Virus record (IMG/VR): IMGVR_UViG_2617271086_000001
Coordinates: 1-4,776 of that record
Strand: one strand, 5' to 3'
Origin: a virus
Taxonomy: Duplodnaviria > Heunggongvirae > Uroviricota > Caudoviricetes
Length of the DNA stretch: 4,776 nt
A model generated the notes under the pieces. It worked only from the letters and a program-made list of their open reading frames with translations. It had not been told where the DNA came from and made no database searches. Every line of letters starts with the position of its first letter. Within the stretch, counting starts at the first letter, position 1. The translations under genes were made by a program, and so were the position numbers. Positions 1 through 4,776 of the stretch are shown here, in pieces.

Positions 1-426
1 GCAAACCTTACCGTTGCTACGTCAGAACAATGGCGTGATAAGCAAACTGGAGAGCAAAAGGAGCAGACGGAGTGGCACCGTGTGGTAATGAGCGGGAAAC
101 TGGCAGAAATTGCCAGCGAATATCTGCGAAAAGGCTCTGAGGTTTATCTTGAAGGCAAATTGCGGACAAGAAAATGGCAGGATCAAAGCGGACAGGATCG
201 GTTCACTACCGAAGTCATCGTGGGCGTTGGTGGAACCATGCAAATGCTTGGTGGCAAGCAAGGAGGCAATGAACAGTCTTCACCTCAGCGAAATAACGGT
301 CAGCAACAAAGACAGCAACCTCAGCAGCAAGGGAATCACAGCGAACCACCTATGGATTTTGACGACGATATCCCCTTTGCACCAGTAACTCTCCCCTTCC
401 CTCGTCACGCTATTCACGCAATTTAA
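1..426 (+). CDS. ssb: Single-stranded DNA-binding protein, 5'-truncated by the window edge (frame 1 is open from base 1)
   Basis: Translation from base 1 gives ...[68 protein letters not shown]..., closely matching the OB-fold core of E. coli SSB as recalled from memory; Gly/Gln-rich linker; [11 protein letters not shown] acidic tip motif (nt 346-378) followed by an unusual 15-codon extension before TAA at 424-426. Confidence 0.9.
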
Positions 427-434
427 GGACTTAC

Positions 435-983
435 ATGAATCACTTAATGGTTGACCTTGAAACAATGGGCAACGGGCCATACGCGCCAGTTATTTCTATT
501 GGGGCGGTATTCTTTGACCCGAATACCGGAGAAACAGGAGAAGAGTTCTCGGTAAATATCTCGCTTGAGTCATCAATGCGATATCGGGCGCGTCCTGACG
601 CTTCAACGATTTTATGGTGGCTGGAACAGAGTGAAGAAGCCAGAAAATCGCTAACCAGCAACACTCAGGAGCTTTCAACGGCTCTTTCATGGTTATCTGA
701 ATTCATCATAAAGAACGCTAACCACAAATTCGTTCAGGTTTGGGGGAATGGAGCATCATTTGACTGCGTTATTCTCCGCAACAGTTATTCGCTGACAGGA
801 CAGCCAGTTCCGTGGCAGTGGTGGAATGACCGCGACGTAAGAACAATCGTCGAGCTTGGAAAGGTAATAGGATTTGACCCTAAGCGAGATATGCCATTCA
901 AAGGAACTCGCCACAACGCGCTTGATGATGCCATCCACCAAGCCAAATACGTTTCAGCAATCTGGAAAAAATTAGCTAAATAA
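435..983 (+). CDS. DnaQ-like DEDDh 3'-5' exonuclease (RNase T/epsilon-like fold)
   Basis: 182-aa ORF with AAGGA Shine-Dalgarno 5 nt upstream of ATG 435; Exo I-like MVDLETMG, Exo II-like WGNGASFDC, Exo III-like HNALDDAIHQAKY motifs; start 9 nt after the ssb stop. Confidence 0.75.
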   Translation: MNHLMVDLETMGNGPYAPVISIGAVFFDPNTGETGEEFSVNISLESSMRYRARPDASTILWWLEQSEEARKSLTSNTQELSTALSWLSEFIIKNANHKFVQVWGNGASFDCVILRNSYSLTGQPVPWQWWNDRDVRTIVELGKVIGFDPKRDMPFKGTRHNALDDAIHQAKYVSAIWKKLAK

Positions 984-999
984 TCAACAGGAGAAAAAC

Positions 1000-1296
1000 A
1001 TGCCAGCGCCTCTGTATGGTGCGGATGACCCGCGCCGCTGTTCCGGCAATTCCGTATCGGAGGTGCTGGATAAATTCAGAAAAAACTACGACCTGATAAT
1101 GTCGCTACCGCAGGAAACGAAAGAGGAAAAGGAATTTCGCCACTGTATATGGCTTGCAGAGAAAGAAGAACGCGAGCGAATTTACCAGACATCAATCCGA
1201 CCATTCCGCAAAGCCACATATACCCACTCCCCTGAATATATCGACCCGCGCCTGCGTAATTACCGCTCACGCTATGGCGCTATCAGTAATGACTGA
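1000..1296 (+). CDS. Phage early protein, hypothetical; possibly Abc2-like anti-RecBCD protein (recollection only, unverified)
   Basis: 98-aa ORF with AGGAG SD about 8 nt upstream of ATG 1000; charged, Arg/Lys-rich; the N-terminus [14 protein letters not shown] resembles my memory of P22 Abc2-family proteins; it sits directly downstream of the ssb/exonuclease genes. Confidence 0.5.
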
Positions 1297-1306
1297 GGAA
1301 TTTACC

Positions 1307-1471
1307 ATGAGAGGACTTGCATACAATCCCGGCATTCTTCCGGCAGAAATGATTATTCGCCAACGCGTAAAGCCAATGCCATCGAGAGAGGAATTGCTTA
1401 AGAGAAATTCTTTTCCATCAGTGAATCAAAACAAATATCTGAATGCGATGTTGCGGAGTGGGAAGAAATGA
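1307..1471 (+). CDS. Hypothetical small phage protein (54 aa)
   Basis: ATG 1307 preceded by GAGG (1295-1298) at 8 nt spacing; stop overlaps the next start in an ATGA junction (1468-1471). The track's longer 1154 start would overlap the preceding gene and lacks an SD. Confidence 0.45.
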
Positions 1472-1881
1472 AACAAATGTCACTAATTGAGATGGATGGA
1501 TTTCTTAAAGGTAAATGCATCCCAAGTGATTTAAAGGTTAACGAAACAAACGCTGAATATCTGGTGCGTAAATTTGCTGAAGCGGAGGCCAAGTGCGCGG
1601 CGCTGGCAGCGGAGAATGCGGCGCTTAAACAGTCGGAGAAGGAATTTAATAACTTCTGTCGTCAGGAGTACTACGGTTGGGAGGACAACTTCACGGAAAC
1701 CCCAGCCACCGATGCTTTCCTGGCTGAAGTACGGGCGCAGGGCGTGGATATGGCTCGTAACGCGATGATTGATTTTGTTGATGGTGAAGTTGGGCCAAAC
1801 AAGAACGTTCCGGGGCTGATTAGAGGCGCAGAGATATGCGTAAGTATTGCTGAACAGCTTCGCAAAGGAGGCAACCAGTGA
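1468..1881 (+). CDS. Coiled-coil phage accessory protein, possibly Ead/Ea22-like
   Basis: 137-aa ORF; Ala/Glu-rich heptad-like segment [23 protein letters not shown]; ATGA overlap with the upstream gene and GTGA overlap with the downstream gene. Confidence 0.55.
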
Positions 1882-2177
1882 CTGTATGTCTTATTGATAA
1901 ACGTCGACGTGGGCAACAAATACCATCTGTTGAAATGCCGAATCACACATGGTTTTGCGTACTTGATATCGATGGTATGGATGCGTTGGTTGACACTCGT
2001 CATTACTGCGATACCGCAACAGCTACTCCGGCGAAAGCAAAGAAAATGGCTGCTCTGATAGAAAACTGGACTCCACCTGATGGTTGGTGCAATGGGAATG
2101 ATCGAGATTGGCATGAAAAAATGAAGGGCTATATCTGCGATTTCTTACGTAAATGCAACGGATTCAGGGTGATGTGA
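1878..2177 (+). CDS. Hypothetical phage protein (99 aa, Cys/Trp/His-rich)
   Basis: GTG start at 1878 preceded by AGGAGG (1866-1871) at 6 nt spacing; GTGA overlap with the upstream stop; no recognisable family. Confidence 0.5.
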   Translation: MTVCLIDKRRRGQQIPSVEMPNHTWFCVLDIDGMDALVDTRHYCDTATATPAKAKKMAALIENWTPPDGWCNGNDRDWHEKMKGYICDFLRKCNGFRVM

Positions 2178-2178
2178 C

Positions 2179-2586
2179 ATGAACAAGATTGACTATCAGG
2201 CACTGCGTGAAGCGGCAGAGAAAGCCGGTGAAGATAAGTGGCAGGCTAAAAAAATAAATGGTGATTTTTTTGTTATTCGTCACGGTAGTTATACAAGACA
2301 GCATGGCTACACATCGTATCAACCCATTGCGGAGATTGATTGTAAGCCAGTCCGGGATTTTGTTGCCAAGGCTAATCCGGCTACCGTACTGGAATTACTG
2401 GATGAACTGGAAGCAGCAAAAAAGCGCATTGCAGAACTGGAAGCGCGGGAAATATCGCTCCCGGAACGTAGCAGCATGCTTCATCGAACAGATTTTCACG
2501 ATGATTACCAAACGGTAATGGCATACAAAGTTTCTGAAGTCATCGCTGCAATCCGCGCCGCAGGCATTCGCATCAAAGGAGAGTGA
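2179..2586 (+). CDS. Ead/Ea22-like family protein
   Basis: 135-aa ORF; N-terminal MNKIDYQALREAAEKAGEDKW and central LLDELEAAKKRIAELEAR coiled-coil are characteristic of lambdoid Ea22/Ead proteins as I recall them; starts 1 nt after the upstream stop. Confidence 0.6.
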   Translation: MNKIDYQALREAAEKAGEDKWQAKKINGDFFVIRHGSYTRQHGYTSYQPIAEIDCKPVRDFVAKANPATVLELLDELEAAKKRIAELEAREISLPERSSMLHRTDFHDDYQTVMAYKVSEVIAAIRAAGIRIKGE

Positions 2587-2587
2587 G

Positions 2588-2779
2588 ATGGACGGACAAA
2601 TATCAATCGTTCGACCAGGAGCATGTGACGATCGCGAAATACGAATAATTATTCGTCTGGCAATGTGGAAAGCAATAACTGCTCTCATTACCCCAGAAAA
2701 TCTCGCATTAGCATTAACAGGAAAGTCAGACCTGCCAGTAGAGCTAAAGCTGCGAAATGTTGAGATTAAGGTGAAATAG
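2588..2779 (+). CDS. Hypothetical small phage protein (63 aa)
   Basis: ATG 2588 with AAGGAG (2576-2581) at 6 nt spacing; 1 nt gap after the previous stop; no recognisable family. Confidence 0.45.
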   Translation: MDGQISIVRPGACDDREIRIIIRLAMWKAITALITPENLALALTGKSDLPVELKLRNVEIKVK

Positions 2780-2781
2780 CT

Positions 2782-3585
2782 ATGACCACTATTACCAAAG
2801 AACGTATCGAATTATTCATTAAAAATCCGCTTGAAAACGGGCTTACTCGTGGCGAACAAATGGAACTGGCACGAATTGCACTGGCATCACTGGAACGCGA
2901 ACAGATTCGCCACGAGCATGCCAAATGGTCTGACTCCACATTTGGCTGCGTTGGCCCCATTGGTCCACTGAAACACCTCTCAAAAGAGGCACTGGAAGCC
3001 GCAGCCGAACCAGACGATCTTAGCGAGTGGGCTGATATGCAGTTTCTGTTGTGGGATGCACAGCGCCGTGCTGGCATCAGCGATGCTGAAATTACCGCTG
3101 CTATGGAAGATAAATTGAAGATCAACATGGAGCGCCAGTGGCCTGAACCAAAAGATGGTGAGCCTCGCTTGCACATTAAAGAACCCGGCAACTCTCCGGT
3201 AATTCCGGATGGTTTATCCACGGTATGCGCTGAGGCTTATCAGGTTGTAGGAGTTATGGCAGATGCGCTTGGTGTATTCGGTGATGCAGCAGTACAGAAA
3301 GTTCTGGATAACCTGTCACAGCAAAAACTTGTTCACAGAGATGTGCTGCCGTTCTCGCTTCCGGTGACTCCGGATGGTTGGATAAGCTGTAGTGAGCGAA
3401 TGCCGGATAGCAAAACAGCCGTTCTTGTTGCCAGGGAGTTTGACAGGAAAGGTTACTGGCGAATGAAATGGGCGACTTACATCCCTGGGCATCCTGACGC
3501 TAATGATGGGTGGATAATTCCTGGTGCGTCGTGGAAACCGTCACACTGGATGCCGCTACCAGAGCCGCCGCAGGAGGCGAAATGA
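2782..3585 (+). CDS. MazG-like dATP/dGTP pyrophosphohydrolase domain (DUF550) fused to a C-terminal DUF551 domain
   Basis: 267-aa ORF; N-terminal all-alpha region with acidic clusters (ELARIALASLEREQIRHEH; EALEAAAEPDDLSEWADMQFLLWDAQ; MEDKLKINMERQWPEP) resembling MazG-type NTP pyrophosphatases; C-terminal DGWISCSERMPD...HWMPLPEPP matches the DUF551 signature as recalled; AAGGTGA SD at 7 nt spacing. Confidence 0.7.
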   Translation: MTTITKERIELFIKNPLENGLTRGEQMELARIALASLEREQIRHEHAKWSDSTFGCVGPIGPLKHLSKEALEAAAEPDDLSEWADMQFLLWDAQRRAGISDAEITAAMEDKLKINMERQWPEPKDGEPRLHIKEPGNSPVIPDGLSTVCAEAYQVVGVMADALGVFGDAAVQKVLDNLSQQKLVHRDVLPFSLPVTPDGWISCSERMPDSKTAVLVAREFDRKGYWRMKWATYIPGHPDANDGWIIPGASWKPSHWMPLPEPPQEAK

Positions 3586-3863
3586 TGGACTCCTTCGCAA
3601 AATATACAATTATTGACTGGATGGCCTTCCTTCAGGTTTTGCTCATCTGGTTTTATATGGCTTACAGGAGTGGGCAGTGGATTGTCAGTGTAGCCTGTAG
3701 CAAGGGATGGCGTTGGTGGAACCGAAAGAATAAAAAAGCACTGGCATTGGATTCGTTTTACGAAGCATTCAATCTTAACAGCCTTCAGCCTGGTTCTGTC
3801 ATTGTAGTCACCACTCAAAGCGGCATGACCATTCAGATTCATAAACCAAAAGAGGAAAAATGA
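3582..3863 (+). CDS. Small membrane protein (about 93 aa, one predicted N-terminal transmembrane helix)
   Basis: AGGAGG (3572-3577) upstream of tandem ATGs at 3582 and 3585; ATGA overlap with the DUF550/551 stop; hydrophobic segment YTIIDWMAFLQVLLIWFYMAY followed by a basic stretch WRWWNRKNKK (positive-inside topology). Confidence 0.55.
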   Translation: MMDSFAKYTIIDWMAFLQVLLIWFYMAYRSGQWIVSVACSKGWRWWNRKNKKALALDSFYEAFNLNSLQPGSVIVVTTQSGMTIQIHKPKEEK

Positions 3864-3949
3864 TGTGGCCTATATGTGTTAATTGCGGACGGATGTGCCT
3901 ATCTGGATGGTGCCGAAAGTGCGACAAATGCACGAAGAAAAGACAATAA
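3860..3949 (+). CDS. Cys-rich micropeptide (29 aa, MMWPICVNCGRMCLSGWCRKCDKCTKKRQ), putative zinc-ribbon-like
   Basis: Absent from the ORF track (too short). Tandem ATGs at 3860 and 3863 overlap the upstream stop (TGA 3861-3863); AGAGG at 3851-3855; six Cys including a CxxC pair and a C-x2-C-x2-C run; followed by a terminator-like hairpin. Confidence 0.35.
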   Translation: MMWPICVNCGRMCLSGWCRKCDKCTKKRQ

Positions 3950-3953
3950 CAAT

Positions 3954-3980
3954 CCTCGCACTCGCGGGGATTTCTTTTAT
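3954..3980 (+). terminator. Putative intrinsic terminator
   Basis: Stem CCTCGC (3954-3959), loop ACTC, stem GCGGGG (3964-3969) with one G-U wobble, then T-rich tract ATTTCTTTTAT; lies right after the micropeptide stop in the only sizeable intergenic gap. Confidence 0.35.
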
Positions 3981-4017
3981 CTGAACTCGCTACGGCGGTT
4001 TTTTATGGAGATGATAA

Positions 4018-4185
4018 ATGCACTTCCGAGTCACAGGTGAATGGAATGGAGAGCCATTCGACAGAGTTATCGAAGCAGAGGACATCAATGACTGCTATAA
4101 CCACTGGATGATATGGGCGCAGATAGCACATGCAGAAGTAACCAATATTCGAATTGAAGAACTGAAAGAACACCAAGCCGCCTGA
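4018..4185 (+). CDS. Hypothetical small protein (55 aa), moron-like
   Basis: ATG 4018 with GGAG (4007-4010) at 7 nt spacing; translation MHFRVTGEWNGEPFDRVIEAEDINDCYNHWMIWAQIAHAEVTNIRIEELKEHQAA; absent from the ORF track; bracketed by two terminator-like hairpins. Confidence 0.5.
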   Translation: MHFRVTGEWNGEPFDRVIEAEDINDCYNHWMIWAQIAHAEVTNIRIEELKEHQAA

Positions 4186-4200
4186 TGGCGGTTTCTTTTT
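4175..4200 (+). terminator. Putative intrinsic terminator
   Basis: GC stem CCGCC (4178-4182) / GGCGG (4187-4191), loop TGAT, extended by flanking A-T and G-U pairs, followed by TTTCTTTTT; overlaps the stop codon of the 55-aa ORF. Confidence 0.5.
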
Positions 4201-4215
4201 GCCTGGAGAATTAAG

Positions 4216-4407
4216 ATGACCGATACCAGCCTGATTCCTGAGAAAGAAGTGATGAACAAGCTCGGTGTTTCATCACGTCAGACAATCTGGAACTATACCA
4301 AACGGCACGGATTTCCAAAGCCAGTCAGAACCCACCCCAAATCATACCTTCGTGAAGCTGTTGAGGGGTGGATTCTTAACGGTGGCGTTAATCAGAAATG
4401 CTCCTGA
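4216..4407 (+). CDS. xis: AlpA/Xis-family excisionase / phage transcriptional regulator (helix-turn-helix)
   Basis: 63-aa ORF with GGAG (4204-4207) at 8 nt spacing; EKEVMNKLGVSSRQTIWNYTKRHGFPKPVRTHPKSYLREAVEGWI fits the AlpA/excisionase HTH pattern (ligand-free small DNA binder, conserved FPKP and W); adjacent to the integrase. Confidence 0.8.
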   Translation: MTDTSLIPEKEVMNKLGVSSRQTIWNYTKRHGFPKPVRTHPKSYLREAVEGWILNGGVNQKCS

Positions 4408-4776
4408 TGTGCCAGAACAATTTATCAGCGTGAAGCTCATACGCTTTGCGCTGAGCCTCTATCCAGTCGTGTTTATTGTATACGGACATTATCCCGCCAA
4501 GTTCATGACCGAGCATTCGCTCAGTAACATGAGGCTCGACATTCATCTCGGACAGACGTGTAACAAGCGTTCTTCTGAAATCGTGTGTTCGCCAGTAACC
4601 GAGATCCATCCCTCCCCTTATTCTATTTACGAATCGGTTGGCTGCAGCGATGCTGATCGGTTTGTTTATGTCTTCTCCAGGGAAAAGAACATCATTGTAC
4701 GTTGTCATGGCCTTTTCGAGGAAAGGCTTAATTTGTTCGAAGATTGGACGGCGGATAACATTACCCATCTTGCTAT
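4388..4776 (-). CDS. int: Tyrosine recombinase (phage integrase), C-terminal catalytic region; 5' part lies beyond the window
   Basis: Minus-strand frame open to the window edge; HDFRRT (His-x-x-Arg box), MLGHE and VYNKHDW (catalytic Tyr region) motifs; stop at 4388-4390 (TAA on the minus strand). Confidence 0.9.
   Translation of the reverse strand, partial: SKMGNVIRRPIFEQIKPFLEKAMTTYNDVLFPGEDINKPISIAAANRFVNRIRGGMDLGYWRTHDFRRTLVTRLSEMNVEPHVTERMLGHELGGIMSVYNKHDWIEAQRKAYELHADKLFWHIRSISD

Follow-up and report, generated by a model that had tools for sequence, protein, structure and literature searches.

Among the closest described systems to the gene reported here are small phage proteins and peptides. 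The Lar and Lar-like restriction alleviation proteins of Rac-type prophages (PF14354) are Cys-containing proteins of ∼60 amino acids (aa) that are thought to bind a host enzyme complex; Ea8.5 of phage lambda is a small protein (93 aa) with a zinc-finger part and an additional helical domain, encoded between ea22 and orf55/xis; and Stp of phage T4 is a 26-residue peptide that acts on a host restriction/anticodon-nuclease complex. Here we describe a micro open reading frame (micro-ORF) on the + strand of a 4,776-nucleotide (nt) stretch of Caudoviricetes DNA (positions 1 to 4,776 of IMG/VR virus record IMGVR_UViG_2617271086_000001, hereafter the window), which directly follows a gene of the Pfam family DUF4752 and encodes a Cys-rich peptide. 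The micro-ORF proves to be a genuine gene on which purifying selection acts. Its occurrence is limited to Enterobacteriaceae phages and prophages (those of Escherichia, Salmonella, Citrobacter and Kluyvera), and its peptide is without a fixed gene partner and independent of DUF4752. On balance we lean towards a stand-alone, horizontally mobile phage gene whose product, a zinc-binding microprotein of 24–29 residues, would bind a host target and would not be a partner of the DUF4752 protein. Judged from sequence, these peptides would form a new family within a known kind, the small zinc-binding accessory proteins of phages, set apart by their tiny size and their spread over unrelated phage types.

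A conserved micro-ORF under purifying selection

Read from ATG 3860 to the TAA stop at 3947–3949, the micro-ORF product is MMWPICVNCGRMCLSGWCRKCDKCTKKRQ, with Cys codons at 3875, 3884, 3896, 3911, 3920 and 3929. The initial annotation of the window, made from the letters alone, had described a 29-aa peptide with six Cys, which is correct for translation from ATG 3860; the start conserved in the family is, however, ATG 3863 (28 aa), because the family alignment has a single Met ahead of WPIC and variant L052 retains the second ATG only, and five of the six Cys are conserved across the family. In the 29-aa numbering used throughout, C6, C9, C18 and C21 are the putative zinc ligands, C13 is invariant too, and C24 is confined to the window subtype. 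The ATGATG start/stop overlap pointed out in the same annotation is indeed present, ATG 3860 overlapping the DUF4752 stop as ATGA and ATG 3863 overlapping the same stop as TGATG, and the latter one-base overlap is also seen in other context groups (listed below). A Shine-Dalgarno (SD) sequence, AGAGGA at 3851–3856, precedes ATG 3860 by 4 nt and ATG 3863 by 7 nt, and the region around the start is less stably folded than its shuffled counterparts (z = +1.5), which points to an open start site. The terminator-like hairpin said to close the pair is an intrinsic terminator (3951–3980), formed by a 9-bp GC-rich hairpin that begins 2 nt past the TAA stop and is followed by a T-tract (z = −3.7).

The micro-ORF is an outlier in composition, with 21% Cys against 11% for the next among all 86 window ORFs that reach 20 aa. 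Shuffling the window 300 times gave 0.017 ORFs of 20–40 aa with at least six Cys per window, none of which had two CxxC motifs; the remaining frames and strand over the micro-ORF core are mostly interrupted by stops. The signature of selection comes from 23 distinct 66-nt core DNA sequences, in which 20 of the 22 third codon positions are variable, compared with 11 of 22 first and 10 of 22 second positions. Pooled proportions of synonymous (pS 0.785) and nonsynonymous (pN 0.149) differences in these sequences give a pN/pS of 0.19 in the ORF frame, and of 1.7–1.8 in the two shifted frames. At the protein level the family has the invariant core MWPICxxCGRxCxxxWCxxCD, and C6, C9, C18 and C21 are invariant in the 13 aligned variants and in every other intact variant. 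Between context groups the 66-nt core is 64–85% identical, and the 150 nt on each side are 0.59–0.60 identical, where shuffled sequence gives 0.59; with flanks at the random level around a conserved core, the conserved and moved unit is therefore the 75–90-nt ORF itself. One of the tests by which the initial annotation was to stand or fall was whether homologous prophages keep the Cys pattern; they do, and the pattern extends well past prophages.

A tblastn search of phage genomes found an identical or near-identical ORF in the temperate phages HK106, mEp213, mEp043, IME10, Kapi1, JEP4, Gally, Dewey, BASEL Bas106 and H19J and in two Shiga toxin 1a (Stx1a)-converting phages. The siphophages C1, S192, KFS-SE2, KFSST1, ST1UNAM, ZCEC08 and CF-SP1 (genera Deseoctovirus and Skatevirus), in which no integrase is annotated, encode peptides of 64–92% identity, and the peptide of the 154-kb Citrobacter myophage Tr1 (Stephanstirmvirinae) falls in the same range. 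Carriers amount to 28 isolated phage records and 82 IMG/VR relatives, 80 of which were kept. The micro-ORF is also present in 182 of 5426 complete E. coli genomes (∼3%), 43 metagenome stretches match a strict degenerate DNA pattern, and a pattern that excludes the window subtype has one match among GTDB representative genomes, in a Kluyvera prophage. On plasmids the gene was found in just one 1.4-Mb record labelled as such, next to a DUF4752 gene. The nearest complete E. coli genomes share ∼96% identity with the window across 3400–4220, and E. coli 13KWH46 is 100% identical across a 151-nt stretch surrounding the micro-ORF. In prophage carriers, which include lambdoid and P22-like as well as other enterobacterial prophages, the micro-ORF is always sited distally in the early-left accessory region, close to xis/int, with TraR-like, NinX-like, DUF551, MazG-like and ASCH genes as neighbours. 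We recovered ∼30 distinct peptide variants, all stand-alone and 24–29 aa long except for a few extended or truncated singletons. When three concatenated variants were used as the query of a protein search, the sole match was a frameshifted DUF4752::peptide fusion of 121 aa on a short assembly contig; no larger protein containing the peptide module was found in this search, so that fusions give no hint of its function.

The gene shows how a selected phage gene of 75–90 nt escapes annotation. The ORF track of the window missed it, as had been remarked at the outset, and the NCBI Prokaryotic Genome Annotation Pipeline (PGAP) misses it too, making no call over the micro-ORF in the annotated E. coli loci examined. 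The peptide was also said to be unannotated, which holds for most records, the site being unannotated in almost all other phage carriers, but the same ORF is annotated in phage HK106 as HK106_030 (gp30), a hypothetical protein (AFH20718.1 / YP_007151700.1; locus L220, 901–990). The exact window peptide occurs in nr under third-party annotation (TPA) records of metagenome-assembled genomes (MAGs) labelled “DUF1244”, a label left unsupported by a Pfam scan without match. Two annotated phage ORFs that cover the micro-ORF, mEp213_028 (L002 1808–2047, 79 aa) and Bas106_0019 (L003 1819–1920, 33 aa), are in the wrong frame and cross the terminator; the codon-position pattern supports the 29-aa frame only. 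A 480-aa TolC-like protein that stands as representative of the peptide's 90% protein cluster is unrelated and a clustering artefact. Literature searches with the HK106 gp30 accessions and the motif string found nothing relevant, and the peptide sequence is absent from the supplements of an enterohaemorrhagic E. coli (EHEC) translatomics paper and of an Enterobacteriaceae microproteome study.

Gene contexts and the relation to DUF4752

At least six unrelated upstream families directly precede the peptide gene. In every context the gene abuts the upstream stop, through a TGATG, TAATG or TGAnATG junction, and in every context group an SD-like purine run lies ahead of it. The context groups are:

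Group A (this window): DUF4752 gene upstream, terminator downstream
Group B (siphophages): phrog_7798 upstream, terminator downstream
Group C (phage Tr1): phrog_2510 upstream, membrane ORF downstream
Group D (at least 12 prophage loci): TraR/DksA-like zinc-finger gene (PF01258, phrog_54) upstream, NinX-like gene (PF10765) downstream
Group E: phrog_12750 upstream, MazG-like gene downstream
Group F: gene for a DUF551 protein upstream, terminator downstream

In the siphophages of group B the micro-ORF stop lies 6–8 nt ahead of the terminator stem. In the TraR/NinX group (L075–L088; for example L081 2504–2590) the last codons of the peptide gene, AAG CGG GGG TGA (K-R-G-stop), serve as the SD of the next gene, and the conserved KRG ending is explained by this double use. 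DUF4752 offers a parallel case, in that its K-E-E-K ending contains the SD of the micro-ORF.

What follows DUF4752 varies as well. At the 80 IMG/VR loci closest in DUF4752, the peptide comes after alleles that end in KPKEEK, while those that end in EEGRG precede an ASCH-domain gene, which starts at GTG with an overlap of 8 nt, or have no gene ahead of the same terminator. Behind DUF4752 proteins of 63–71% identity, in Enterobacter and Citrobacter prophages and a Mu-like element, unrelated ORFs of 103–112 aa come next. The interval from DUF4752 to the terminator behaves like a site at which cargo is exchanged. The same terminator is found in 1624 of the 5426 complete E. coli genomes and in CUS-3 behind other cargo, and this hairpin, which elsewhere closes the ASCH gene or no cargo, appears as a widely shared module boundary. 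One of the alternative ORFs, of 112 aa behind a diverged DUF4752 (L214 2278–2616, Enterobacter/Citrobacter prophages), has a Cys-rich C-terminus of its own (RCGKCG...CPC...C) and belongs to no Pfam family.

The window covers the distal part of the chain of early-left accessory genes in a lambdoid or P22-like prophage of enterobacteria. Its + strand genes extend from 82 to 4407, with stops and starts overlapping at most junctions, and its features are:

82–426, + strand: C-terminus of a single-stranded DNA-binding protein (SSB)
435–983, + strand: Rv2179c-like 3′-5′ exonuclease
1878–2177, + strand: DUF7739
2179–2586, + strand: Ead/Ea22-like
2782–3585, + strand: dATP/dGTP pyrophosphohydrolase + DUF551
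3572–3577, + strand: SD AGGAGG of the DUF4752 gene, within the 3′ end of the 2782–3585 gene, read from the sequence
3582–3863, + strand: DUF4752 gene (Pfam PF15944, phrog_667)
3851–3856, + strand: SD AGAGGA of the micro-ORF, coded by the last DUF4752 codons (K-E-E-K)
3860–3949, + strand: micro-ORF, 29 aa from ATG 3860 or 28 aa from ATG 3863
3951–3980, + strand: intrinsic terminator, a stem-loop (3951–3972) and then a T-tract
4018–4185, + strand: lambda orf55-like gene (phrog_676), 55 aa, 3′ of the terminator; the mEp213 annotation notes it as 'similar to lambdap35'
4175–4203, + strand: second intrinsic terminator, at the end of the orf55-like gene and overlapping its stop
4216–4407, + strand: AlpA/excisionase-like helix-turn-helix (HTH) gene
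4388 to beyond 4768, − strand: integrase gene, convergent with the AlpA-like gene

The description of the micro-ORF as the last unit of its operon applies to transcripts ending at the first terminator; beyond it, however, lie the orf55-like and AlpA-like genes in the same orientation. Each of the two small genes preceding the AlpA-like gene is bracketed by terminators. The 3′ end of the AlpA/excisionase-like gene overlaps the integrase gene by ∼20 nt (4388–4407), as it does in the matching E. coli prophage adjoining sbcB. No sigma-70-like promoter was found within 3300–4450, and Rfam covariance models gave no match at E ≤1 anywhere in the window. The junctions at either end of DUF4752 (3582–3587 and 3860–3865) share one arrangement, AAATGATG, in which two in-frame ATGs both overlap the TGA of the preceding gene and lie 4 or 7 nt past an SD; at the first of them the stop TGA 3583–3585 of the upstream gene overlaps ATG 3582 and ATG 3585.

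The DUF4752 ORF runs from ATG 3582 (93 aa) or ATG 3585 (92 aa) to TGA 3861–3863, and RefSeq homologues use the second ATG. An hmmscan of the 93-aa protein against Pfam-A had PF15944 as its sole match (124.4 bits against a cut-off of 27, with residues 9–92 on profile positions 2–84 of 84), and the protein also matches phrog_667 (E = 1.6e-38). Homologues are confined to Escherichia, Citrobacter and Enterobacter; a literature search on DUF4752, a Pfam family without known function, found nothing relevant. Of the ∼93-aa single-pass membrane protein proposed in the initial annotation, the ORF stands and is now assigned to DUF4752, but the membrane span is a prediction, drawn from a Kyte-Doolittle maximum of 1.65 at residues 9–27, a +7 charge after the helix (seven K/R and zero acidic residues at positions 29–52) and a long helix in the AlphaFold2 (AF2) model. 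D12 and Q18 are invariant inside the hydrophobic helix (residues ∼9–28). The AF2 model, built from a 13-sequence alignment, has a helix at 3–62 and strands at 73–77 and 83–87 that form a C-terminal beta-hairpin (predicted local distance difference test (pLDDT) 72, predicted template modelling score (pTM) 0.29). DUF4752 is probably a separate accessory gene for a small membrane-anchored protein with a predicted N-out/C-in topology.

A putative zinc microprotein, its possible role and rival explanations

Two CxxC knuckles, as in C4 zinc ribbons and zinc knuckles, are found in all intact members of the family. They have the form (W)PICxxCG and WCxxC and stand 8 residues apart, and this CxxC-x8-CxxC spacing fits a minimal zinc ribbon and suggests zinc binding. 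The zinc ribbon raised as a possibility in the initial annotation is accordingly still the best candidate structure, in view of the conserved knuckles and of weak profile and fold matches to zinc modules, and single-sequence AF2 modelling of the peptide predicts short beta bridges (pLDDT 80.6). The peptide itself matched no family at E ≤1 in an hmmscan against all of Pfam-A, which includes lambda Kil, Lar, the TraR/DksA zinc finger and DUF1244, and it had no match in PHROGs or NCBIfam.

Under the reading that we lean towards, a stand-alone phage gene for a zinc-binding microprotein with a host target, the micro-ORF would be expressed early in infection as part of the co-oriented early-left accessory gene chain. 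Ribosomes finishing DUF4752, or binding the open AGAGGA site, would initiate at AUG 3863 or 3860, and non-antiterminated transcripts would stop at the hairpin 2 nt beyond the micro-ORF stop. The peptide would fold into a minimal zinc ribbon round one Zn2+ coordinated by (W)PICxxCG and WCxxC, with the invariant fifth Cys placed at the hairpin tip. During lytic growth it would bind a macromolecule that enterobacterial hosts share, acting as an accessory factor for host takeover or counter-defence. We propose a host target because the gene is present in phages without an annotated integrase and in a 154-kb myophage, absent from plasmids (the single record labelled plasmid aside), and sited near xis/int among accessory genes; the target may be a defence system, RNA polymerase or another macromolecule. 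A bolder version, which we consider rather improbable, would have temperate and virulent phages of Enterobacteriaceae add the 24–28-residue zinc knuckle as a 'plug-in' 3′ of any early gene, directly neutralising a conserved host defence or core enzyme. If true, it would mean a new family of anti-defence or host-takeover microproteins, among the smallest autonomous exchanged phage genes and unseen by current annotation.

Several observations weigh against the host-target reading. The argument for a host target or for counter-defence consists of gene neighbourhood and of occurrence in non-temperate phages, and PADLOC-DB gave no match at E ≤10 for the peptide, the DUF4752 protein or their neighbours. 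The family profile has as its best PDB match the zinc ribbon of the RNA polymerase III subunit RPC2, at a non-significant E = 0.17, and every Foldseek match of the peptide model is likewise non-significant (E ≥3, the best at E 3), although most of these matches, including the top ones, are zinc modules, with the RPC2 ribbon first. Two prophage singletons lack one knuckle Cys (C21Y in L068 and C21R in L069); in another, recombinant singleton (L061) the 3′ end has been swapped for that of the ASCH gene; and in a recombinant represented by L076/L107 codon 18 of the micro-ORF is joined to the 3′ part of the 112-aa ORF gene, in another frame. The losses of knuckle Cys and the recombinants imply that the gene is dispensable in some prophages. 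L068, L069 and L061, together with L052/L096, in which the DUF4752 stop and first ATG are gone, look like decay or mosaic joints of individual prophages. The DNA of the window-type subgroup, finally, is 96–100% identical and carries no selection signal by itself. Such uninformative identity, and the lack of a PGAP call, would be expected of a chance ORF or decaying remnant whose apparent conservation reflects recent shared DNA ancestry, an explanation that the comparative data refute: members of only 64–85% DNA identity retain frame, start, stop and Cys pattern with mostly synonymous changes, and shuffles almost never yield a comparable ORF. An RNA element was rejected on the codon-position pattern, and an attenuator leader peptide is ruled out by purifying selection and by the lack of a terminator behind the peptide in the Tr1, TraR/NinX and MazG contexts.

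The initial annotation had raised the membrane protein and the peptide as a candidate pair for kil-like host inhibition, superinfection exclusion or abortive infection (Abi); in such a unit DUF4752 would supply a membrane effector and the peptide would be a zinc-binding regulator or antidote. Within the E. coli sublineage the peptide does come next, with a start/stop overlap, after each DUF4752 allele that ends in KPKEEK, and the SD of the peptide sits inside the DUF4752 coding sequence. The two genes nevertheless part company readily, the peptide following five further unrelated families at loci where no DUF4752 gene is close by, and DUF4752 alleles of E. coli, Enterobacter, Citrobacter and a Mu-like phage preceding an ASCH gene, a 103–112-aa ORF or nothing; the co-occurrence expected of a two-gene effector/regulator module, be it Abi, toxin–antitoxin-like or kil with a partner, is not seen. 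With neither protein matched by PADLOC, and with the peptide found in phages without an annotated integrase and in the 154-kb myophage, which argues against a role in superinfection exclusion or Abi that serves the lysogen, the pairing is very improbable and was not upheld. Just as improbable to our minds is the proposal that only the act of translation matters, through anti-polarity, modulation of the terminator or the handing of ribosomes to the next gene, with a functionless peptide. Its appeal lies in the stop placed 2 nt ahead of the terminator stem here and 6–8 nt ahead in siphophages, and in the TraR/NinX prophages, where both micro-ORF ends overlap their neighbours and the last codons form the next SD. 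The terminator, however, is present in contexts A, B and F and absent in C, D and E, and amino acids are under strong purifying selection; the invariant residues are all said to be Cys, Trp, Gly, Pro, Arg or Asp, and a pure coupling device would not conserve such residues across unrelated flanks. A zinc microprotein that acts on the transcription machinery or nucleic acid, for instance on RNA polymerase in the manner of its TraR/DksA neighbours, rather than as a defence inhibitor, is the strongest of these competing explanations and still a viable sub-hypothesis, though it too is unlikely. The peptide gene lies directly behind a TraR/DksA C4 zinc-finger gene (PF01258, phrog_54) in at least 12 distinct prophage loci, the best sequence and fold matches are to a zinc ribbon of RNA polymerase III, and the window subtype has a basic tail, KCTKKRQ; but those matches are non-significant, the tail is not conserved, other subtypes ending in KRG, and TraR is just one among six upstream families.

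That the amino-acid sequence is ∼64–90% conserved in phages of unrelated types suggests one conserved target shared by enteric bacteria, and a ligand of such a target with only 24 residues would be easily synthesised and studied. The gene would also be a clean example of microgene mobility through translational coupling to arbitrary upstream genes. Tractable carriers include HK106, mEp213, mEp043, Kapi1, BASEL Bas106, Stx1-converting phages, and Salmonella and E. coli siphophages.

Comparison with known small phage proteins and zinc modules

Like Lar, the peptide is a small Cys-containing accessory product from the early region of enterobacterial temperate phages; unlike Lar, it is also found in non-temperate phages, it is less than half the size, and it has no match to PF14354. 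It shares with lambda Ea8.5 the same early-left slot, with an Ead/Ea22-like gene on its upstream side in the window and an orf55-like gene on its downstream side, and both are accessory proteins with a zinc-binding element, putative in the case of the peptide; Ea8.5, however, is a protein of 93 aa with an additional helical domain, and no sequence similarity to the peptide was detected. The TraR/DksA-like phage proteins (PF01258, phrog_54) are likewise small C4 zinc proteins and come from the same accessory regions, one prophage group encoding such a protein directly upstream, but at 70–75 aa they possess a coiled-coil that enters the secondary channel of RNA polymerase, whereas the peptide is without such a part and has no match to their model.

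Outside phages, the RPC2 zinc ribbon (PDB 5fj8_B, 7ast_M) has identical ligand spacing and similar residues (VCDKCGLMGYSGWCTTC vs ICKHCGRMCLSSWCRKC); with E values of 0.17 and 3 this is a structural analogy at best, and the ribbon is an element within a 1100-aa subunit rather than a free peptide. T4 Stp lacks Cys and any zinc motif and does not resemble the peptide in sequence, and the likeness is one of kind only, but it provides a precedent for a phage peptide of similar size that binds a host defence complex.

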